The position numbers were made by a program, and so were the translations under genes. The notes under the pieces are model-generated. The model did no database searches, had not been told where the DNA came from, and saw nothing but the letters and a program-made list of their open reading frames with translations. 63,393 bases of DNA, taken from assembly GCA_903878285.1 (NCBI GenBank), contig CAIRHB010000013.1:1-63393 (forward strand), in the 5' to 3' direction. This document shows positions 20,509 through 62,499 of this stretch, piece by piece. This DNA is from Candidatus Adlerbacteria bacterium. Lineage in GTDB: Bacteria > Patescibacteriota > Minisyncoccia > Phycocordibacterales > SBAW01. Numbering within the stretch: position 1 is the stretch's first letter; the number at the start of each line of letters is the position of its first letter.

Positions 20509-23500
20509 CTACTTAATAAAACTAAACGTCGTTGAGAAGTTCTTGAAGATGATGTCGACGATCGACTCACTCTGTTGCGGCGTCACAACGGTGCGCACCG
20601 GCAGTGTCTCGGTGTTCCCTGCCTGGTCGGTCGAGGACACCTGGATGCGGTAGATGGTGGACGGCTTGAGACTTGGCAGTAGCACCACGTGGTCCTGCAC
20701 AAAGCCGGTGTCATTCTCGACCTTGTTCTTGAGCGGTACGGTGGTGTTGCCACTTCCCTCCTCGTAGTACACCGCGCTAGTAGATGGCTTGTCGGTCTTC
20801 CACGAGACGATAGACTGTACAATATCGGTGCGACCCGGCACCAGGTTGGAGTCGATACGAAGGCTGGTGACCTGTGGGAGTGTCTTGTCGACCAGCGTAG
20901 TGACCGGCAGTGTACTGGTCATGGTGATGAGGTTACCATCTGCGTCGTAGCCATATGCTTTGACGTCGTAGGTATGCCCAGAGACAAGGTTGTTAGCAGT
21001 GAGATCGTGAGCGAGGGTCAGGGTGGCGTCCTTGAGTGTCTGGATGGTGCCTGTGGTGCGGTCGGTAAAGTCAATACTCGAGGAGGTCTGGATGCTCGTG
21101 GTCCACAGCACACGGAAGGAGTCTGGCTTCACATCAAGCACCTGTGGCGTGATTGGCCCTGCTTTGGTGGTGACAGTGTAGTCGCTACTCTTGGCGATCA
21201 CTTGAGGGAAGATGAATGCCTTGGTGATGAAGTGGTATTTGGTGTTTGGTGCCAGGTTGGTAAGGGTAAGCTGATGCGTTGTAGTGGCGATCTTGAGGTC
21301 AGAGGATTCTGCGGTGTAGTTGTGTGTCTTTTGGTAGGCAGCGTCTGTGTCGTAGTCGAGCACGGTGTAGGCAGGCACGTTGGTGCTCCAAGAGATCGTG
21401 GTGCTGTCCTGTGTGGTGCTGGCGATAATGGGCGTCGTCATGAATGGTGGGTTGATCGATGGGAGAGCCGACTGGATAATGTCCTCCAGCTTGCTCTGGA
21501 TATCGACCGCCTTGCTGAGTGCCGAGAGGTCGCCGAGGTCTTCGGCGGAGAACTTGGTGGTGAAGGAGGCGTCGGTGGATTGTGCAGTGAGACCGTCTTT
21601 GCTGATGACACTAACGAGATAATGGTAAGTGGTGCCTGGGAGCAGGTTGTTGATCTTGATACTGGTGTTAGCAGAAGGTGTCCAACTGCTTGCACTGTCG
21701 GTATAGGTTGCGGTGGGGGTACTGGAAGAAGTTGCACCATATTGGAGCCCCACTCGCACATCCTTGTCTGTCACCACATTAACCGTCGCATCAAAGGTGT
21801 CGATAGGATCCACCGTCATACTGCTGATCTTGGGTGCCACGGGCACTACCGGCGTCGGGTTGTTGGTGCTCCCTGCGCCGCCACTTGATGCCTGCACCAC
21901 AATCACCTCCGTGGCAGACGTCGTGACCATCTGCTCGTCGGATACACCACGGTTCCCGAGCGCATCATTGGCGATGATACGGAAGTAGTATGCCGTACTT
22001 GGTGTCAGGCCCGAGAGCGTCGCTACATGGAAGGTACCGAGCGTGGTATCCAGCACCGTGTTTGTGGTGTAGTTCCCGTCGGTAGTAGAGGCGACCGTGC
22101 CATACTCGACCTGTGTATCTGCGGGCTTGTCAGTGTTCCAGGTGACGACGATGTTCTTGGCATCAATGACAGGTTCGACAATGTCCGTGATAGTAGGCGG
22201 CGTGCTGTCTTTACCCGTGGTGAGCGTGTAGTTTGATCCGCCCGTGTTGTGGTCTGCGCTGGTGATACTATTTGCATCGGTCGAAGTAACGTAGAACGAG
22301 TATGGCGTAAGCGCCTGCAGATTGGTGAGTGTCACGCTGTGTGTAGTGGTGGCAGTCCCCGACCCAGCGGTTAGCGGATGCGACGGGTCAGCACTCACCC
22401 AGTAGAACACCTGCGAGTCTGCTGCGGTGTCAGTGTTCCAGGTGATCGTAGCACTGTGGTAGTCCTCGGTGTGCGCCACCGCGGTGATGACGGGGCCACT
22501 CACAGTGGTAAAGGTGTAGCCATTGTCCTCGCTGTTGGTGTTGCGACAAATGTCGGTGGAGGTGACCTTGTACTGGTAGGTGGTGTGTGCCTGAAGGTTG
22601 GTGAGATACACCGTGTGTGTGTTGAGGTAGCTGGTGGTCGAGGCGATGCCGCTAAAGCCACCCATACCGTAGGTCACCACCCCGTCTGCGAGATTGTTCG
22701 GCGTGCTCCAGGTAATCGTGGCAGACGTGTTGCCGAGATTACTCACAACAGGTGTCGTCATCACAGGCGGGAGTGACGAGCAGCCAGAGCCAGTGGGGGT
22801 CACTTTACTTGTGGGAGTAAAGTCAGAGAGGTTGCCAGCTTGGTCAACGGTACGTTCCTTGTAGTAGTAGCTGGTAGTGGAGGACAGGTTCATGTCCAGA
22901 TAGTAGTTGAGCGCCGCGGTGGTGACGGTTTGGAAGGGACTGTAGGTGGTGCCGTCGGTTGAACGCCAGATCTGGTACGCCTGGAAGGGGTCGCTACCGC
23001 CGTATAGTGACCACGCCAAGAAGAGTTGGTAGGTGTTCGTGGTGGCGTTTGATATATCGTGTGCCTCAAAGTTGTCGAGTGTTGCAGGCGCCAACACCGT
23101 GGTCGTGGCAATGTTGTTGAAGATATCCTTCGTGACCACCGTGACCGAGTGGGTTGAGGTACCGGTGTCGAGTGTCCAAGGTATACTAAGCGCGAAGGAT
23201 AACGGGAGCGCGTCGAGGATCAGAGACGGTGGTTCCTGGTTAACTCCACTGCTCCCGTTTACTCCGTCAGCAGTGCCGTTGCTGTTGTTGGAGACCGTAT
23301 AGTTGAGCAGCGGCACCGAGCTCGAGGCACTAATGCTCACGGTGGAAGTGCTGCTGGAGCCATCGATATGTACACTAACAGATGGTTGCTTCGTCTCGAT
23401 AGCGAACGCGGAGGTAGTGGCGTAGGCGATATTGTTGATGACCTCGTTGTCGTTGGCGGTGATGCGTACCTGCGCAGTAGTGCTATAGGTGTTGGGGATG

Positions 23501-26500
23501 TCTTGTGCTGCGTTCCAGTAAGCGGTGTAAGCGGTGTAGCCAATCTCCGTCACCGCCTTGTTACTCACTGCGTTGGTGGCGTTACCAGCGGCGTCGGCGA
23601 TGGTGGTGATGTTGTGCCAGGTGTCGGCGGGACTCAGGCGATATTGGAAGGAGGGGGTAATGAAGCCAGGCGTTACACTGCCGGAGGAGGTATCTTGGTC
23701 GCGCACGCGGTAGTCGATGCGTACTTTGCCATAGTTGGAGGAACTCTCAAGAGATGGCATACCGCTGTAGGGTATGTTGATCTGTCCCGCGGTAGCACCT
23801 GCCCCGTTACCAAGCGAGGGGTCGAAGTCTGGTGCTCCGTTTTGTGCATAGGTGACAACGATGCTGGTAATCGCGGGCACCGCGACTCCGTTGGAGGAGA
23901 TGAGGGTTGCTTGTACTTCCAGGTACTGATCGGTCGGCGGCGTGGTGTTGGTGGTGTCCCCTGTATTAGGCAGGATAGAAGCAGTACCTGAGCCGTTGGT
24001 GGCGAGGATGGTAGCAGACCATTGTGCGCTATAGAGACTGTCCTGCGTGTTAGCGCCACGCGTGCGGAAGAGTATCTGTGTGTTTGAGGGGATGGTGGTA
24101 GCCCAGCCCAGAGACACCATCTGTGCTGCTCCCTCGGCGTTGATCTTGAAGTTCTGCAGTGTGCCTATATAGTTGTGGTCGTTGTATGATAGGGTGAAGG
24201 ACGAGACGGTGGCGTCACCAGTGAAATCGACACGGTACTTGAGTGTGGTACCAGTCGTGGTGGCGAAGGTGGTTGGAGTGCCGGGGGTGGATGCGACCCA
24301 GGTGGCACCGTTGTCGTTGGAAAGATAGTAGGCTACGGAGCCGGCGGTGCCATTGGAGGCAACGACGTTCTGGATGGTAGCGGATTGAATACCGCCAGGG
24401 ACGGTTGCGAGGGTGGTGGAGAAGGCTGACTGAGAAACGGGAGGAGGGGTGGAGGAGGCGAGGGTGCCGTTGCCAGACCAGTACATGGTGCCATTTGCAG
24501 CAGCTATCACTGCCTCGTTAGAATTATTGTTCATGGTACTGAGGAAGCTTACTGCAGATGGCACGCTAGACCACTGCGCGTTTGTGCCACTGGGACCATA
24601 CTTCGCCACGAGTCCGTTATTGAAACCAACATAGATGGAGTGCGACACCGGGTCGTAGGTGTTTACGTTGGCGGCCCAACTGTTAGACGGAGTAGCATTA
24701 AACAGCGTTGTAAATTGTGTAGACAGAGAAGATACCGCGGTACCAACATTATTCGCGAGCATACCAATGTTCCAAAAAGCACTGGATTCAAATATTACGC
24801 CTGAGATAGGATCTACCAATGGAATTGAAGGTGCCCAGCATCCAGGAGAGACAGGGATGGTTGTTATAGTACCATCAAGACCTACCTTTATTGTCCCCGC
24901 AGCAGAAGTTCCTTGATATATCTTATTATCATATGCGCCATAAGTTAACGCAGTAGTGCCCCCAGAGCCGCAGCCTGTATCATTAGTAAAAGTATATGGA
25001 CTGCCAACCTGTGCTGTAGCGCCAGTTTGTAAATTGTATGAGTAGAATGTCTCGGTTACACTACTGCCCGACACTATTCCTTGCGAAAGATACAACAAAT
25101 GAGTAGCTGGATTTATCGCTCCAGTTACTGATGCCCAATAACTACTAGACAATAGAGGTATAGCGTTTGTACCAGACGACCCCATTACAGGCGTTACCGC
25201 ATCAGTTGCTGTGTTGTAGATAAAGGTTCCTCCACCTGAGTTAGAAACTACGAGACTATTAGTTGCTGCATCAAACGAGAGCACAACGCCAGCGTATCGT
25301 GGATCCTCCCACCAGACCATCTTTGAAGAGAGGTCAGTTTTTGCACCTGTGGTCAAATTAATCCTCCCAAGAAAGGCAGAGTTCGCAACAAACAGGTAGT
25401 TATGATTGGAGTCATATGCAAGTGCTGATGCTTGTCGATTAGGGTCAGCGAAGATATTCGTCACGAGTGAGCTAATGTCCTGAAACCTGTCAACATTCGT
25501 CCGCGCAAGTTTATTGACGGTGATTGGTGAATAGTATGGGCCGTATGATTTTAGTGCAGAAACTTCCCCAGCCGACAGCGCTCGGTTGTAGATAGCAACA
25601 CCAGCAATAGTAGCGTTTGAATAGTCGCCTTGGTAAGTTGGATTATAGCCAATAGATATGCTCGTGTTGGAAGGAATTGTGCCCACAAGCGCTTTAGTGT
25701 CTACTAATATTCCGTCAACATACATCTTTACATTGGAGCCATCATAGGTGTTGACCACATGATGCCAAATCGCTGTCGAGGTAGAGACGCTTGTACTCAC
25801 ATTGGTAGAACCATTGCCGATATTAAAACTAAAACCACTGCTATTTGCAAAGAACTGGAATCCCCTATTGTCTACGTCTGTATGCGAGTTTGCCATCAAT
25901 CGACCACCATTACCACCAAGCACCCACGCATCAAGCGTAAATGCAGTGTAACTCTGTGCAGTGTTTGCAAGGTCAATATGTTGATTACTTCCATTTAACT
26001 GTATTGCCTGCCCAAACCCCGTTGGTCCTGTCACACCATTGTATCCATTGACCACGGTTCCTGTATGACCATTGCTACTCAGATCTGGTAGCTGCACACC
26101 ACTAATGGTAGAGCTGTCGGAGTAGTAGGCAACGGGTGGATTCCCTGGGACTGCTGTTGAGTATCCTGTAACAAACGTCTGAGCCGTCGCCCAACTACTA
26201 CTAGTGTCCAGATGATAGTCAGTCCCGTTCGTGCCATTGAAGCTCTCGTTGAATGTACCCTTGAGCGAATCTGACCGCAGCGTAACAGTACCGGGCGTGG
26301 TAGTCATATCCACGTTTGGTGTGATGATGGTGGAGGTTGCAATACGGCCATCATTGTTGACACTACCAGTGGTGCCACTCCAGCCACTTTGGAATGCAGT
26401 CTGTGTTGCCCAAGGCGCCGTATAGGTTGCCGCTTGTGCAACGGGGAGAACGCCAACGAGTGGTGAGGAGATGAGCGAGGAGACAACCAAGAGTACGAGG

Positions 26501-26589
26501 AGGCGTTGCGTGAGCGTACGTAGCTGCACAAACACTCGTATGCAGACGGTTCGCACTTGTTGCTGTGTCAAAAAGTTTTGCATGTACAA
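20509..26589 (-). CDS. Giant secreted surface protein (2026 aa) with a LamG-like lectin domain and about eight FN3-like repeats
   Basis: It has a signal peptide (LLVLLVVSSLISSPLVGVLPVAQA) and a Laminin_G_3-like block (LNGSNQHIDL...FTLDAWV...VKMYVDG...AIYNRALS). Repeated FN3 / PAP-N-like modules each end in motifs such as LTNLQAHTTYQYKVTSTD. Confidence 0.85.
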   Translation of the reverse strand: MYMQNFLTQQQVRTVCIRVFVQLRTLTQRLLVLLVVSSLISSPLVGVLPVAQAATYTAPWATQTAFQSGWSGTTGSVNNDGRIATSTIITPNVDMTTTPGTVTLRSDSLKGTFNESFNGTNGTDYHLDTSSSWATAQTFVTGYSTAVPGNPPVAYYSDSSTISGVQLPDLSSNGHTGTVVNGYNGVTGPTGFGQAIQLNGSNQHIDLANTAQSYTAFTLDAWVLGGNGGRLMANSHTDVDNRGFQFFANSSGFSFNIGNGSTNVSTSVSTSTAIWHHVVNTYDGSNVKMYVDGILVDTKALVGTIPSNTSISIGYNPTYQGDYSNATIAGVAIYNRALSAGEVSALKSYGPYYSPITVNKLARTNVDRFQDISSLVTNIFADPNRQASALAYDSNHNYLFVANSAFLGRINLTTGAKTDLSSKMVWWEDPRYAGVVLSFDAATNSLVVSNSGGGTFIYNTATDAVTPVMGSSGTNAIPLLSSSYWASVTGAINPATHLLYLSQGIVSGSSVTETFYSYNLQTGATAQVGSPYTFTNDTGCGSGGTTALTYGAYDNKIYQGTSAAGTIKVGLDGTITTIPVSPGCWAPSIPLVDPISGVIFESSAFWNIGMLANNVGTAVSSLSTQFTTLFNATPSNSWAANVNTYDPVSHSIYVGFNNGLVAKYGPSGTNAQWSSVPSAVSFLSTMNNNSNEAVIAAANGTMYWSGNGTLASSTPPPVSQSAFSTTLATVPGGIQSATIQNVVASNGTAGSVAYYLSNDNGATWVASTPGTPTTFATTTGTTLKYRVDFTGDATVSSFTLSYNDHNYIGTLQNFKINAEGAAQMVSLGWATTIPSNTQILFRTRGANTQDSLYSAQWSATILATNGSGTASILPNTGDTTNTTPPTDQYLEVQATLISSNGVAVPAITSIVVTYAQNGAPDFDPSLGNGAGATAGQINIPYSGMPSLESSSNYGKVRIDYRVRDQDTSSGSVTPGFITPSFQYRLSPADTWHNITTIADAAGNATNAVSNKAVTEIGYTAYTAYWNAAQDIPNTYSTTAQVRITANDNEVINNIAYATTSAFAIETKQPSVSVHIDGSSSTSTVSISASSSVPLLNYTVSNNSNGTADGVNGSSGVNQEPPSLILDALPLSFALSIPWTLDTGTSTHSVTVVTKDIFNNIATTTVLAPATLDNFEAHDISNATTNTYQLFLAWSLYGGSDPFQAYQIWRSTDGTTYSPFQTVTTAALNYYLDMNLSSTTSYYYKERTVDQAGNLSDFTPTSKVTPTGSGCSSLPPVMTTPVVSNLGNTSATITWSTPNNLADGVVTYGMGGFSGIASTTSYLNTHTVYLTNLQAHTTYQYKVTSTDICRNTNSEDNGYTFTTVSGPVITAVAHTEDYHSATITWNTDTAADSQVFYWVSADPSHPLTAGSGTATTTHSVTLTNLQALTPYSFYVTSTDANSITSADHNTGGSNYTLTTGKDSTPPTITDIVEPVIDAKNIVVTWNTDKPADTQVEYGTVASTTDGNYTTNTVLDTTLGTFHVATLSGLTPSTAYYFRIIANDALGNRGVSDEQMVTTSATEVIVVQASSGGAGSTNNPTPVVPVAPKISSMTVDPIDTFDATVNVVTDKDVRVGLQYGATSSSTPTATYTDSASSWTPSANTSIKINNLLPGTTYHYLVSVISKDGLTAQSTDASFTTKFSAEDLGDLSALSKAVDIQSKLEDIIQSALPSINPPFMTTPIIASTTQDSTTISWSTNVPAYTVLDYDTDAAYQKTHNYTAESSDLKIATTTHQLTLTNLAPNTKYHFITKAFIFPQVIAKSSDYTVTTKAGPITPQVLDVKPDSFRVLWTTSIQTSSSIDFTDRTTGTIQTLKDATLTLAHDLTANNLVSGHTYDVKAYGYDADGNLITMTSTLPVTTLVDKTLPQVTSLRIDSNLVPGRTDIVQSIVSWKTDKPSTSAVYYEEGSGNTTVPLKNKVENDTGFVQDHVVLLPSLKPSTIYRIQVSSTDQAGNTETLPVRTVVTPQQSESIVDIIFKNFSTTFSFIK

Positions 26590-40566: not shown

Positions 40567-47415
<6,849 letters not shown>

Positions 47416-56831: not shown

Positions 56832-59144
56832 CTATTTTGCAACCGCGAGCGCGTCTTCGAACTTGATGGAAAGGAGTTTGGAGATCCCGTCGGAGCCCAT
56901 CGTGACGCCATAGAGGACGCCCGCGCGGGACATGGTTTCGCGGTTGTGGGTGATGACGATGAGCTGCGAGCGCTGCGCCAAGACCTCGATCATGTCGCCA
57001 TAGCGGCGCGAGTTCGCCTCGTCGAGCGCCGCATCTGTTTCATCAAGTATCAAAAACGGCGGAGGGTTGACCTGCGACATCGCGAAGATGAGCGCAATTG
57101 AGGTGAGCGCGCGCTCGCCGCCCGAGAGCATGTGCAGACCTTTAACACGTTTGTGTGGCAGCGAAATATCGACCTCGACGCCGTCGTTTTTATGCGCGTT
57201 TACTCGCGCGGTCGCGTCTTGCACAACACCGCCGCGGAGAGAATCATCCGCATCTGACGCACGGTATTTTGGCGAAAACTCGCTTGCACTTGTAGCATCA
57301 TCAGTGTCGTCGTCCGCATCATCACGCGCAGATTGGATAAGAGACAGTGTCGCACTCCCGCCGCCGAAGACGAGTTTAAAAAATCGGTCGAACTCGGCGG
57401 CGACGGTCGCGATCCCACTCGCGAAGCGCTCCTCCAACGTCGCCGTCAACTCCGCAATCAGTTGGTTGAGCGATGTGGCACTCTGTTCAAGATCAGCGAG
57501 CTCGCGGGCGAGAAACTGCTCGCGTTCGACGGTTTCTTTATGTTCGCGCAGCACCTCGGCAGCATTTGCTGCACCACTTTCCTCGACTTTAATTTTGAGT
57601 CGCTCCAGCTTGCGGCGGCGCTCGTCCTGGCGCTCCTGCGGCTCGTCGACAATGTCCGCATCCGACAGTGGCTCGCCGCTCTCGCTTCGCACTTCATAAC
57701 TGTCATAGTCGGCGATGGCACGGCCAACCAGCGCAGCTGCCTCGCCGAGCTCGAGCCGAAACTGCTCCTGCGCGCGCGACAGCGTCTCGGCACGTGCGCG
57801 CAGCTCGGCGATTACTGTCTCCAACTCGCTCCGGCGCGCCATCGCGGCAAAGAGCTCACGCTCACCTTCGCGGTTGGCATCTTTTTCGCTATCAATTTTT
57901 GCACGAAGCGCCACGACCGCATCACTCACTTCTTTCGCCTTTTGCTCTACAGCAGCGAGTTCTGTCTCGAGTGAGTGCTTTTTTTGATTGAGCTCGTCGG
58001 CCGAGATGCGCGGCTGCTCGACCTTCACCATCCGACGCAAGAAATCTTTTGCGAGGACAATCAGCGCCTGCAAAGCGTGGCGCATCGTCGCCTCGTCGTG
58101 CGAAAGCGCCTGCGCCAACTCCGCCTCGACTGTCTGTGCGAACTCGCGCGCTTGGGTGGCAGGCACGCTGTCGACCATCGTGGTGACAATCCGCGCCTGC
58201 GCGGCGAGCTCGCCCTCGACCCGGCCCAGCTCGCGGCCGAGGCTGTCGCGCCGCGCGGCGAGCCGCCGACCCTCGTCCTCGAGGTGCACCAGCTCGGACG
58301 CGCCTGCGTCATGCTGTTTTTGCGCGAGTGCCGCGCGCAGCGCGGCAATGCGCGTGCCGAGTGTTGCATACTCTTCCTGTGGGATGCGTCGCTCCTCTGC
58401 CAAGAGCAGTTGCCCGACGCGAATGCGCACGCTCTCGCGTTTCAAATATTCTAGATACATCTCGGCGAGCGAGTCGCGCAACTTCTGCGACTCCTCAATT
58501 TTCTTGACCTGCGCACCGAGGTAGCGCAAGTGCGGTGCCAGCTCGCGGCGCAGGCCCTCGACCTCGCGCATATTCTCGGCGGTCTTCTCCAACTTCTTTA
58601 GCGCCTCAACTTTTTTATACAAAAATGCCGTAAGCCCGAGCGCGTCCTCGATCATCTCGCGCCGCTCCTTCGGCGAGCAGGTGAGCACACGGTCGGCCTC
58701 GCCCTGCGAGATAATATGGTGCCCCGATGCGCCGATGTTCGCCGATGCCAAGAGCTCAGTAATATCGCGCAGGCGCACCTGGCTGCCATTCAACACATAC
58801 TCGTTCCCACCATCGCGGTTGACCACGCGCTCGATAGTCACCTCGTCAAAATCGACATTAAGCAATCGCTTACCACCAACTGATGGATTATCAAATACCA
58901 ACTTTACGCTCGCTCGCCCCGCGCGCGGCACCGCCGCCGAGCCATTCCAGATCATATCCTCGCCACGCTTGCCGCGCATCGACTTCATCGACTGCTCGCC
59001 GAGCACAAAGCGAAACGACTCGGCGATGTTCGACTTCCCTGAGCCGTTCGGCCCCACAATCGACGTAATCGCCGTGGCAAACGCCAAGGGCGTCCGTTTT
59101 GCAAACGATTTAAATCCGCTCAACTCAATCGACTTCAGGCGCAT
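56832..59144 (-). CDS. smc: SMC-family chromosome partition ATPase, short form without a recognisable hinge
   Basis: The N-terminal head is FKSFAKRT...IVGPNGSGKSNIAESFRFVLGEQS. The C-terminal head is LSGGERALT...LILDETDAALD...IVITH. The total is only 770 aa, and the middle is continuous coiled-coil-type sequence. Confidence 0.85.
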   Translation of the reverse strand: MRLKSIELSGFKSFAKRTPLAFATAITSIVGPNGSGKSNIAESFRFVLGEQSMKSMRGKRGEDMIWNGSAAVPRAGRASVKLVFDNPSVGGKRLLNVDFDEVTIERVVNRDGGNEYVLNGSQVRLRDITELLASANIGASGHHIISQGEADRVLTCSPKERREMIEDALGLTAFLYKKVEALKKLEKTAENMREVEGLRRELAPHLRYLGAQVKKIEESQKLRDSLAEMYLEYLKRESVRIRVGQLLLAEERRIPQEEYATLGTRIAALRAALAQKQHDAGASELVHLEDEGRRLAARRDSLGRELGRVEGELAAQARIVTTMVDSVPATQAREFAQTVEAELAQALSHDEATMRHALQALIVLAKDFLRRMVKVEQPRISADELNQKKHSLETELAAVEQKAKEVSDAVVALRAKIDSEKDANREGERELFAAMARRSELETVIAELRARAETLSRAQEQFRLELGEAAALVGRAIADYDSYEVRSESGEPLSDADIVDEPQERQDERRRKLERLKIKVEESGAANAAEVLREHKETVEREQFLARELADLEQSATSLNQLIAELTATLEERFASGIATVAAEFDRFFKLVFGGGSATLSLIQSARDDADDDTDDATSASEFSPKYRASDADDSLRGGVVQDATARVNAHKNDGVEVDISLPHKRVKGLHMLSGGERALTSIALIFAMSQVNPPPFLILDETDAALDEANSRRYGDMIEVLAQRSQLIVITHNRETMSRAGVLYGVTMGSDGISKLLSIKFEDALAVAK

Positions 59145-59188: not shown

Positions 59189-59620
59189 ATGGAGAAGACA
59201 GACTTCAATCAGCTAGATACAAAACTCGACGCAATAGTGAGCAGTATATTGGTGCTTACTGGTCGATTTGATACACTCGAGCACAGGTTTGATACCCTCG
59301 AACACAAGTTCGACGCATTGGAGCATAGGTTTGATACGTTCGAGAAGAATGTATCGGATCGGTTTGATGTGCTCGAACATAGATTTGATACGCTGGAGCA
59401 AAAGGTTACTGCATTAGGTGAGAAAGTAGATACTCTCGACAGCAACCTGTCTGACCTGACAGAGATCGTCGTCGCGATAAAAGACAAACTCGAAGACAAC
59501 GATGAGCGGCTTGAGATTGCCGAGGGCAACATCAACGGACTTCACCGCCGCATCGACGCCGAGGTCGATTCCCGCGTCGCACTTGAGGCATTCGTCAGCA
59601 AACACATCCCGGTGGCATAA
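59189..59620 (+). CDS. Heptad-repeat coiled-coil protein (RFDTLEH repeats)
   Basis: 143 aa that is almost entirely heptads, including six near-identical R/K-F-D-x-L/F-E-x units. TATACT-N7-ATG lies upstream. Confidence 0.65.
   Translation: MEKTDFNQLDTKLDAIVSSILVLTGRFDTLEHRFDTLEHKFDALEHRFDTFEKNVSDRFDVLEHRFDTLEQKVTALGEKVDTLDSNLSDLTEIVVAIKDKLEDNDERLEIAEGNINGLHRRIDAEVDSRVALEAFVSKHIPVA
59264..59401 (+). repeat. Six imperfect 21-bp tandem repeats (one 12-nt interruption), coding
   Basis: The units start at 59264, 59285, 59306, 59327, 59360 and 59381 (for example cgatttgatacactcgagcac and aggtttgataccctcgaacac). They are in frame with the CDS. Confidence 0.85.
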
Positions 59621-59633
59621 CACTGGCGCATAC

Positions 59634-60380
59634 TTACCGCAGCTTGTACAAAAATCCGTTTCGGCTCCAAAACCATAGTGGTGGATGCATTTCTATCGGC
59701 GAGATTCCAGAACCATCGAGCAAATTTCGCCAACGCTCAGAAATAGCTTCTTTTGAAAGCGTCTTCGCCTCGTTTTCAGTCAACACGCCGAGCTGCACCG
59801 AGCATTGCGTGATGTGCGTATCGGGCGCAATCTCTATATGTTCTTTGTTCCGTAAATCTACCTTCCCATATTCGCCCAAGATAAAAGACCAGTAGTTAAA
59901 GATCTTTGGTCCAGATACATACGGGAACCCTTTCTTGTGTCGCGCTTGGACAATATCTCGCAAGAGCAAAAAATCATTATTGGTCGCCTGCATCAATTTT
60001 GAAAAACTTCCCCATTCAGTATGCACGGTGTGCGCTATTCTCTTCCAAGTATCGATGTGTTTATTTGGCTGCAATGCAACTTTATGCTTGAGTAACTTTC
60101 TTCGCAACACATCGTCAGACATGCTCGAGACAATCTCCACAGCAAACACATCTTTTGTATCTGGGTCATTCCATGTTTGCAACGCCGACCTCCACAAGGC
60201 GTAACTATCCCGCTGATAATTAAGCGCCATAGGCAATGTAAAATACGCCAACCGCATTTCGGTTTGGTCATCCAAAAAAGCAGGGCTATTGTCCTCTGGC
60301 ATCGTCGTCTGCCCAAGCTGCCCCGTTTTGTACGCTTCCAGCAAACTCTTACAATCTGTAAGTAGTTGTTCTTTATTCAT
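59634..60380 (-). CDS. HhH-GPD-like protein (putative DNA glycosylase)
   Basis: The HhH-like segment FPYVSGPKIFNYWSFIL is followed by IAPDTHITQ, which resembles the GxGxK...xDTHx spacing of endonuclease III. This is a weak, motif-level call. Confidence 0.4.
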   Translation of the reverse strand: MNKEQLLTDCKSLLEAYKTGQLGQTTMPEDNSPAFLDDQTEMRLAYFTLPMALNYQRDSYALWRSALQTWNDPDTKDVFAVEIVSSMSDDVLRRKLLKHKVALQPNKHIDTWKRIAHTVHTEWGSFSKLMQATNNDFLLLRDIVQARHKKGFPYVSGPKIFNYWSFILGEYGKVDLRNKEHIEIAPDTHITQCSVQLGVLTENEAKTLSKEAISERWRNLLDGSGISPIEMHPPLWFWSRNGFLYKLR

Positions 60381-60688
60381 CGCTGCTTGAGTTCTACCTC
60401 CTCTTTATGTAAATCGAACTTGACCACAAACGCATCAAAGAAGCCTCTCTGCCCGACCAGTCCATACGGCATCGCGCGCCCAGCAACCTGCGGCATAAAC
60501 ACCTCGCGCGGCTTACCATCTGCCACCTTGATACCAACAGCTTCGCCAATCTCCGCATCAAACAGACACAGGTCGGCGCCCGAGTCCACCAGCACCTCAT
60601 ATCGGACTGATTCATCCTTCTTACCTCGCACCCGAATCTCAATCACCGGGCGCAAAACCTGTCCGTATTTCTTGTATCGAAACTTCAT
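60377..60688 (-). CDS. Retropepsin-like (clan AA) aspartic protease domain protein
   Basis: The LVDSGADLCLF active-site motif sits in a 103-aa protein. The gene overlaps both neighbours by 4 nt. Confidence 0.65.
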   Translation of the reverse strand: MKFRYKKYGQVLRPVIEIRVRGKKDESVRYEVLVDSGADLCLFDAEIGEAVGIKVADGKPREVFMPQVAGRAMPYGLVGQRGFFDAFVVKFDLHKEEVELKQR

Positions 60689-60879
60689 ATCGCGCCGACG
60701 TATGCTTCTACGTTTTCTGGCATGCGAGTAAGAATCGGGTCATGATTCCCCGCGTCTCTTGCCTTCTGTAGTGCATCACGGAGTGTCTTGCCCGAGCCAA
60801 GCACTGTCAGCTCATCGTCCGCAAGTGCAACCCACAATCCTTTATATTTCTTCTGTGTTTTAGTCCAGTCGATTGCCAT
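60685..60879 (-). CDS. Small DUF5678-like protein
   Basis: 64 aa. The KYKGLWVALADDELTVLGSGKTL...ARDAG pattern resembles small proteins commonly encoded upstream of retropepsin-like genes. Confidence 0.45.
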   Translation of the reverse strand: MAIDWTKTQKKYKGLWVALADDELTVLGSGKTLRDALQKARDAGNHDPILTRMPENVEAYVGAI

Positions 60880-61608: not shown

Positions 61609-62499
61609 TTACTTAGTGGCCAGTTGTTCTACCCCTTTGAGCACGACTGGCAGCATATCGTCATAAAAGTTGAGCTCGAGCGCGTCCTTGAGAAGAAACC
61701 ATTTTGCATCATCGAGCCCGCCCTTCTGCGCAAGCGCAATGTCCGTAAACGGCGACTCTGCGAGAAAGTAAATCACATGCTTGCGCTTTTTGCCGACCGC
61801 GGGGTCGGACGCGACGTACTCGTTCTCGCCCAAGCGCTCTTTAGGGGTGATGTCGAGCCCAATCTCCTCTTTGATCTTGCGCACCACACCTGCCTCTGGT
61901 GTCTCTTCGGGAATGAGCTTGCCCTTCGACAGTGTCCAATGCCCGAAGATGTCATGCACGAGTGCAAGATACACCTCTGCACCTTGATGCGCAAACACAA
62001 CCGCACCGACGAGCCGCTCCAGCGGGAGTTGGTCATACGGCACGTCTTTTTTCTTTTTAGAAATCTCGTCCTTGCCTGGCTCGCCGAGCTCTTTGTAGAC
62101 CGCGCCGAGAACGCCGTTGACGAAGCGGCCGCTGTTGTCGCCGCCGAAGCTTTTTGCTAGCTCGATCGCCTCGTTGATGGCAACCTTCGCGGGAACTTTT
62201 TCTCGATCAGAAAAGAGGAGCTCGAAGAGCCCGAGCCGCAGGACGTTGCGGTCGATCGGCGCGATGCGCTCGATAGGCCACTCGGGCGCCGCTTTTTCGA
62301 TCACCAGGTCGAGGTCGACCCTGTGCGAGAGCGTGCCGCGGAGGAGCTCCTCCATAAACGGCAAATCCCCCGCGCCGGGGGCAAACTCGTCGGCATTGCG
62401 ACGCAGGATATCGACCGCGATCGCAGAGCTGCAATCGCGAAACTCGCACTCGAAGAGTGTCTGGAGAACGACTGATCGTGAGAGGTGCCGATTTGCCAT
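61609..62499 (-). CDS. nusB: NusB antitermination factor fused to a C-terminal NUDIX-like domain
   Basis: Residues 1 to about 140 are NusB (AINEAIELAKSFGGDNSGRFVNGVLG). Residues from about 165 carry the near-Nudix box GKLIPEETPEAGVVRKIKEEIGL. Confidence 0.75.
   Translation of the reverse strand: MANRHLSRSVVLQTLFECEFRDCSSAIAVDILRRNADEFAPGAGDLPFMEELLRGTLSHRVDLDLVIEKAAPEWPIERIAPIDRNVLRLGLFELLFSDREKVPAKVAINEAIELAKSFGGDNSGRFVNGVLGAVYKELGEPGKDEISKKKKDVPYDQLPLERLVGAVVFAHQGAEVYLALVHDIFGHWTLSKGKLIPEETPEAGVVRKIKEEIGLDITPKERLGENEYVASDPAVGKKRKHVIYFLAESPFTDIALAQKGGLDDAKWFLLKDALELNFYDDMLPVVLKGVEQLATK

Follow-up and report, generated by a model that had tools for sequence, protein, structure and literature searches.

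Three minus-strand open reading frames (ORFs) lie between rnc and smc in the 63,393-nucleotide contig CAIRHB010000013.1 of Candidatus Adlerbacteria bacterium (GenBank assembly GCA_903878285.1), the whole of which was analysed and is called the window here. They encode a small DUF5678 protein (P1), a retropepsin-like aspartic protease (P2) and a helix-hairpin-helix (HhH) superfamily protein that resembles the DNA glycosylase AGOG (P3). A preliminary description of this DNA had tentatively presented the trio as a single toxin-antitoxin-like (TA-like) or anti-phage module in which the protease gates the glycosylase. Our analysis argues instead that the block consists of two unrelated units, the P1-P2 cassette and a stand-alone AGOG-like P3, that came to lie side by side in one lineage, and we put the probability of this reading at about 0.72. 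The three genes are arranged as follows.

60685..60879, minus strand: P1, DUF5678 gene, first of the cassette, 64 aa
60377..60688, minus strand: P2, retropepsin-like aspartic protease gene, deleted allele, 103 aa
59634..60380, minus strand: P3, AGOG-like HhH-superfamily glycosylase gene, 248 aa

Consecutive genes overlap by four nucleotides, in an ATGA at 60685-60688 (P1/P2) and again at 60377-60380 (P2/P3), just as the preliminary description had stated. In alignments, the start codons of P1, P2 and P3 coincide with the N termini of their homologues, and start choice therefore does not account for the overlaps. One operon with coupled translation had been deduced from this arrangement. The overlaps stand at both junctions, but the trio is probably transcribed by readthrough from nusB-rnc rather than as a separate operon, since no sigma-70-like site was found in the 28 nt that separate rnc from P1, whereas smc has a promoter-like site of its own at 59178-59151.

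The three genes do not recur together

The proposal of a single module presupposed that the three genes recur as a set, and the preliminary description had itself named a lack of co-occurrence elsewhere as a reason to abandon it. Such a lack is essentially what we found. We gathered 80 loci from other species, in 77 of which P3 was called, and searched the 5 kb around P3 with phmmer and a family hidden Markov model. No P1 or P2 homologue was found near P3 in any of the 77. Starting from the other side, we surveyed 84 other cassette loci (448 kb scanned in total) and found a P3-family gene in only one of them, L140, where it is 39% identical to P3. The order there is rplE, P3-like gene, P1, P2 (L140:328-2308), which differs from that in the window; in nine other loci rplE stands directly before P1-P2, whereas in L140 the P3-like gene comes between. 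By a rough estimate, 0.1 to 0.4 P3-family genes would be expected by chance in the DNA scanned, and the contact in L140 may thus be a coincidence.

Two further loci separate the units. In L128, the order is rpmF, nusB (65% identical to the window copy), rnc (59%), two pilin-like genes, P1 (61%), P2 (51%) and smc (46%), and beyond smc lie a DUF3800 gene and then, on the opposite strand, the RNase R gene. The cassette holds the same rnc-smc slot as in the window and its P2 is intact (132 aa), and P3 is absent from the locus. In L007, a P3 that is 69% identical to ours is found between smc and the RNase R gene, on the far side of smc. The near-zero co-occurrence and the synteny of L128 and L007 indicate that the trio is a lineage-specific juxtaposition, not one system. 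Both units would have been inserted into a variable slot between rnc and smc, where they would be read through from the nusB-rnc operon.

The second ATGA overlap, between P2 and P3, can be set against the spacing upstream of P3 in other loci. Among co-oriented neighbours, a 4-nt overlap occurs in 3 of 55 cases, all of them with unrelated genes, and half of the neighbours lie within 15 nt. The overlap in the window probably reflects the tight gene packing of small genomes.

DUF5678 and the protease form a self-contained pair

A P1-family ORF is located directly upstream of the protease gene, in the same orientation, in 81 of the 84 cassette loci, which bears out the earlier remark that the two recur as a pair. 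In its commonest form, the cassette starts with a 64-aa ORF that overlaps the protease gene by 4 nt, and the pair in the window has the same form. The gene after the cassette differs among loci: adenylate kinase makes up the largest group (7 of 75), followed by S24 peptidase and others. Genes found before it include rplE (9 loci), ComM and PNPase. Because the P1-family ORF is retained upstream of the protease in nearly all loci while the downstream gene differs, the cassette is autonomous. DUF5678 and the retropepsin-like protease are therefore a self-contained, obligate pair that is common in Patescibacteria.

The DUF5678-like nature of P1 is well founded, as it matches Pfam family PF18929 with 30.8 bits, for a cut-off of 23.2, over model positions 2-43 of 49. 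We found 230 homologues of P1 (59-77% identity for the best 120), almost all of them 62-66 aa long, and nearly all carry a precomputed PF18929 assignment. In the AlphaFold2 model of P1, which has a predicted local distance difference test score (pLDDT) of 84, an extended tail of conserved sequence (PILTRMPE..YVG) comes after an alpha-beta-beta-alpha-beta core. No significant structural match to this model was found in the PDB. In a viral library the top matches were DUF5678 proteins from Pandoravirus (probability 0.98, TMq 0.64), yet with an E value of 0.18. The N-terminal domain of the HicB antitoxin was considered as a fold relative and dismissed as noise (E 3.1). A literature search on DUF5678 found nothing relevant. 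We propose that the conserved C-terminal tail of P1 may extend into the protease cleft, where it would act either as the cognate substrate or as a pseudosubstrate inhibitor.

The protease of the window has lost its flap

The P2 family comprises 403 sequences at E ≤ 0.001. The DSGAD motif is located at residues 35 to 39 of P2, and in an alignment of 26 family members D35, S36, G37 and D39 are invariant and A38 is nearly so. The window protein scores 18.5 bits with PF13650 (Asp_protease_2), under the cut-off of 24.3, whereas intact relatives clear it (P0122, 30.2 bits; P0128, 24.8; P0167, 32.7). A profile of P2 gave at most a marginal match to retroviral protease among solved structures (E 2.2). 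The assignment of P2 to the clan AA proteases on account of its DSGAD motif thus stands, but the size of about 100 residues taken as typical does not. The window copy owes its 103 residues to a loss of 29, and relatives are 131-141 aa long (25 aligned relatives and 83 of 84 metagenome copies).

The loss is apparent from the alignment of P2 with P0122, a 131-aa protein whose sequence is otherwise identical. The window copy lacks the 29-residue segment FGVGGKASLYYLHTITIEVGGWPYKIEAG, which spans the GVGG flap hairpin (GVGGK) and the strands after it and is present in 25 of 25 aligned relatives. The junction is located at the following position.

60497..60502, minus strand: P2 deletion junction, codons V63 and F64; in-frame loss of 87 nt in comparison with the intact allele

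From the start of P1 to the start of P3 there are 499 nt in the window, versus 586 nt on the P0122 contig (sample ERZ1426851). The latter has the same order of genes as the window, namely DUF5678, protease, a 248-aa gene and a convergent ORF, which identifies P0122 as the intact allele of a sister strain. An assembly error was ruled out as the source of the deletion, because at least 13 contigs, drawn from several independent assemblies, carry the shortened allele. Since the missing residues include the hairpin that closes over the substrate, the P2 protein of this organism is most likely catalytically dead or decaying. Literature searches on PDC-M08, a candidate defence system considered below, and on retropepsins in combination with Patescibacteria found nothing relevant; one paper describes, in Sulfolobales, proteins with a retropepsin domain in the vicinity of type III CRISPR loci, with no obvious relation to P2.

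P3 is predicted to be an HhH-superfamily protein nearest to AGOG

The AlphaFold2 model of P3 (pLDDT 94.4; predicted template modeling score 0.87) is a two-domain, all-helical fold of 15 helices with an HhH motif. With this model, Foldseek retrieved Qng1, MagIII, MutY, OGG1 and TAG at probabilities of 0.94-1.0, and the top match in the PDB was Qng1/DUF2419, with E values of 2.7e-4 to 1.5e-3. Searches by sequence, single or profile, yielded no real match among solved structures, and only the fold search reached the glycosylases. In Pfam, P3 did not match HhH-GPD (PF00730), and its score with AGOG (PF09171) was 14.2 bits, for a cut-off of 26.1, with residues 159-238 aligned on model positions 148-229. 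We therefore turned to a set of 37 diverse relatives (22-45% identity), of which, at E < 0.01, 19 match AGOG (best E 5.8e-9) and 3 match HhH-GPD. The earlier label of an HhH-GPD-like protein is below threshold in profile searches, but the predicted structure provides the HhH glycosylase fold that it called for. By fold and motif, P3 is a member of the HhH superfamily, in an unannotated family whose nearest relative is AGOG.

Conservation singles out two candidate catalytic residues, the Lys of a GPK sequence and a downstream Asp, both of which had been pointed out in the preliminary description. W164, D187 and W217 are the only residues that are invariant across the 37 relatives, and at least 90% of them retain P153, G157, K159 and H189; within the close P3 family, K159 is invariant as well. 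The two candidates, K159 and D187, belong to the motifs FPY(V/L)SGPKI and then APDTH and are 28 residues apart. Their codons are located as follows.

59904..59906, minus strand: K159 codon (SGPKIF, HhH hairpin), candidate nucleophilic Lys, from conservation
59820..59822, minus strand: D187 codon (APDTH), candidate catalytic Asp, invariant in the 37 relatives

Relatives at 25-30% identity (e.g., P0290, P0311 and P0355) have a C-terminal extension with four spaced Cys residues (GC...C...CPV..FC). This cluster, which is absent from the subfamily of the window, resembles the iron-sulfur (Fe-S) loop of EndoIII and MutY.

P3 is spread across Patescibacteria and DPANN archaea

We retrieved 2,498 homologues of P3, the best 120 of which are 63-72% identical to it. 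At least 574 species-level genomes, from Patescibacteria and DPANN, carry the gene, and the copies across these two groups are 59-72% identical. Those on DPANN contigs (e.g., L024, L033, L062 and L084) are 59-65% identical to the P3 protein of the window. The archaeal origin of the L062 contig is confirmed by the genes on either side of P3, which code for Orc1/Cdc6 and the small subunit of PolD. In comparison, syntenic Patescibacteria share only 45-65% identity in SMC, Rnc and NusB. That archaeal copies of P3 match or surpass these values would imply both a strong constraint on the protein and its transfer between domains.

The neighbourhood of P3 is highly variable. No conserved neighbour was found over the 77 loci, the largest neighbour cluster extending to 7 of them, and the 139 immediate neighbours are spread over 134 Pfam families. 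Ham1/ITPase nonetheless adjoins P3 in three loci, in differing orders (L006:609-1157, L052:943-1479 and L055:6017-6550), for a rough Poisson P of 5e-4 to 4e-3. P0256 also joins a P3-like domain to Ham1 in one protein, P0247 joins one to a Qng1-type Q_salvage domain, and other distant relatives have a fusion with DUF6884. A gene of the Xth-type apurinic/apyrimidinic (AP) endonuclease family adjoins P3 twice, and so does a NUDIX gene. The adjacency and fusion with Ham1, the Xth-type AP endonuclease and NUDIX neighbours and the Orc1/Cdc6 and PolD genes point to a context of purine sanitation and DNA transactions. An origin of the trio in phages was rejected: in 2.9 million viral contigs we found one distant relative of P3 (42% identity) and no relative of P2, and neither P1 nor P2 nor P3 matches a PHROG model.

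A role in base-excision repair, as a glycosylase for damaged purines, is the most likely function for P3, given its kinship with AGOG, its HhH and Asp architecture, the Fe-S-loop-like cluster of its relatives and its genomic context. P3 would work independently of P1-P2. With K159 in its hairpin and with D187 located 28 residues further on, it would flip an oxidised or deaminated purine out of DNA and excise it, the first step of base-excision repair. A lyase activity is possible through K159.

Weighing the alternatives

Several observations weigh against the reading of the block as two unrelated units with a repair enzyme as the second. Two successive ATGA overlaps are unusual for the window, where only one other 4-nt overlap was found among about 32 same-strand adjacent pairs in a rough ORF call. 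The whole rnc-smc block is compositionally foreign, as its G+C content at third codon positions (GC3) is 0.49 in P1, 0.60 in P2, 0.51 in P3 and 0.57 in the convergent ORF, below the 0.70-0.71 of rnc, nusB-NUDIX and smc; the preliminary description was right to call it AT-richer than its flanks. A low-GC methylase gene and a GmrSD/HNH gene lie 3 kb from the trio, past smc. L140 provides a second, independent P3-family gene that touches the cassette, P2 relatives match the PADLOC candidate defence model PDC-M08B (27 bits, E about 8e-7), and Qng1, the closest structural match of P3, acts on nucleotides and not on DNA. The coupling at both junctions, the base composition, the contact in L140 and the PDC-M08B match would all suit one TA-like or anti-phage module, in which the protease, with the DUF5678 protein as its regulator, gates or activates a glycosylase effector, and glycosylases of the HhH and UDG families are proven as single-gene phage defences (PMC11078745; 10.1101/2025.10.29.685425). 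We nevertheless consider such a module highly improbable. The genes co-occur in none of the 77 P3 loci and in one of the 84 cassette loci, in another order, and L128 keeps the cassette without P3. The supposed gate has no flap in this organism, yet P3 is intact. P3 retains 59-72% identity between phyla and between domains, in contrast to fast-evolving defence effectors. Beyond the PDC-M08B match of P2 relatives, known defence models offered nothing, as neither P1 nor P3 has a match in PADLOC and PHROG is silent on all three proteins.

If P3 is independent of P1-P2, it could still be something other than a repair enzyme. It might be a Dag-type glycosylase that defends against phages on its own, is passed horizontally among Patescibacteria and DPANN and excises modified purines such as 7-deazaguanines from phage DNA. 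The Dag proteins are HhH glycosylases, some of which cluster near AGOG and Tag (10.1101/2025.10.29.685425); P3 has the fold of this superfamily, its top structural match Qng1 releases queuine and has a 7-deazaguanine pocket, its neighbourhood differs in every species, its identity of 59-65% across domains implies horizontal transfer, and its GC3 is under that of host genes. However, Dag families are typically less than 20% identical (10.1101/2025.10.29.685425), which contrasts with the very high conservation of P3, and the neighbours of P3 are mostly housekeeping genes (Ham1, NUDIX, the Xth-type AP endonuclease-family gene, tRNA-binding proteins and methyltransferases); with no PADLOC match in addition, a defence role of this kind seems quite unlikely. 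P3 might also act below the level of DNA, as a Qng1-like nucleoside-5'-monophosphate N-glycosidase on free nucleotides, downstream of Ham1/ITPase or in base salvage for organisms without purine synthesis. Together with Ham1/ITPase, it would then recycle or detoxify aberrant purine nucleotides and be a new nucleotide-level N-glycosidase rather than a DNA repair enzyme. The Qng1 matches, the natural fusions to Q_salvage and Ham1 and the three loci with an adjoining Ham1 gene are in keeping with this, as is the concentration of the family in salvage-dependent Patescibacteria and DPANN; if true, it would explain why two domains of life have preserved P3 at 59-72% identity. Yet the nearest family by sequence is a DNA glycosylase, AGOG, matched by 19 of the 37 relatives. 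The intact HhH hairpin and the Fe-S-loop-like Cys cluster of distant relatives are both DNA-binding features, P3 adjoins an Xth-type AP endonuclease-family gene, Orc1/Cdc6 and PolD, and its TM-scores to Qng1 are just 0.50-0.57. A nucleotide-level enzyme is therefore unlikely in our view, and we favour two unrelated units with P3 as a purine-lesion glycosylase.

Flanks of the block and other features of the window

Three more features delimit the block.

59189..59620, plus strand: convergent coiled-coil ORF between rnc and smc, outside the trio, 143 aa
60908..61600, minus strand: rnc (RNase III), flank upstream of P1, Pfam Ribonucleas_3_3 and dsrm
56832..59144, minus strand: smc, flank downstream of the trio, 770 aa, Pfam SMC_N

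The preliminary description had the trio interrupt the conserved adjacency of rnc and smc. The block does lie between them, with the convergent ORF as a fourth member, and in L128 the gap holds other genes as well. Pfam and PHROG scans of the convergent ORF gave nothing beyond non-specific coiled-coil matches. Its product has heptad-like HRFDTLE repeats, encoded in part by a 21-nt tandem repeat at 59267-59344, and is polymorphic in length, with 125 aa in the sister strain versus 143 aa here.

On the rnc side, nusB (61609-62499, minus strand) is fused to a NUDIX hydrolase domain to give a protein of 296 aa, a fusion shared with the syntenic relative L128. SMC is unusually short at 770 aa, and the short form is likewise found in L128. 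Just past smc, the segment 54603-56780 codes for an EcoRI-type adenine methyltransferase (GC 38%, versus 55% for the window) and a GmrSD_N/HNH protein, which together have the appearance of a small restriction or type IV islet gained by horizontal transfer. The slot that these genes occupy in the window holds DUF3800 in L128 and P3 in L007. Elsewhere in the window, the rough ORF call gave two very long ORFs on the minus strand, at 20509-26589 (2,026 aa) and 40567-47415 (2,282 aa).

Significance and comparison with known systems

A protease-gated glycosylase would have represented a new type of defence module; the evidence says that there is no such unit here. What most deserves further work at the locus is the P3 family, given its conservation across domains and its link to ITPase. 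It is very large and unannotated, and it may represent a main purine-lesion repair or sanitation enzyme of reduced genomes. Its conservation between Patescibacteria and DPANN is also evidence for gene exchange between the two groups. DUF5678 and the retropepsin form an uncharacterised pair that is tractable with a simple two-gene construct, and the lineage of the window supplies a natural flap-deletion allele beside an intact sister allele.

Among known glycosylases, AGOG (archaeal 8-oxoguanine DNA glycosylase/lyase) shares with P3 an all-helical, two-domain HhH fold, a Lys in or beside the hairpin and an Asp about 30 residues downstream. It is the sole Pfam family matched by many P3 relatives, and P3 aligns to its C-terminal, catalytic part. 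In contrast to AGOG, the N-terminal half of P3 has no match to the model, and the P3 family is mainly bacterial (Patescibacteria), with DPANN. Qng1 (DUF2419, queuosine-5'-monophosphate glycosylase, PF10343; PDB 7U07 and 7ULC) is the best structural match of P3, at a probability of 1.0 and a TMq of 0.50-0.57. The spacing of its Lys and Asp (K199/D231) is comparable to that of K159/D187, and Qng1 mutants at these two positions are among the Foldseek matches. However, the two proteins are 11-14% identical, Qng1 exceeds P3 by about 70 residues and has a free nucleotide as its substrate, and a weak Q_salvage match was obtained for just 1 of the 37 P3 relatives. Like Dag1/Dag2 and Brig1, which are single-gene anti-phage DNA glycosylases, P3 is a single gene with variable neighbours. 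By their published description, the Dag proteins are hypervariable and come from integrons and defence islands, whereas P3 is 59-72% conserved and lies among housekeeping genes; Brig1 also differs from P3 in having a UDG fold.

The P2 family resembles the prokaryotic single-domain retropepsin-like proteases (PF13650 and TIGR03698; e.g., APRc of Rickettsia, PMC4140852) in its domain of about 130 aa, its D-S/T-G-A motif and its G-V/I-G-G flap, and its active site is presumably homodimeric, as in those enzymes. APRc is membrane-embedded, autoprocessing and unpaired with DUF5678. In contrast, the P2 proteins are cytoplasmic in size and their gene follows that of a DUF5678 protein; the window copy has lost the flap in addition. 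As a pair, P1-P2 is reminiscent of type II TA modules and of ImmR/ImmA-type pairs, with two small, co-oriented genes that overlap by 4 nt, the smaller one first, and that are scattered over varied genomic contexts. As a difference from type II TA modules, no known antitoxin matches P1 in fold, and the divergence of P1 and P2 in L128 (61% and 51% identity) is about that of the flanking housekeeping genes (46-65%). As P1 and P2 are as diverged as their flanks in this one syntenic relative, vertical inheritance appears to fit the cassette better than a mobile addiction module.

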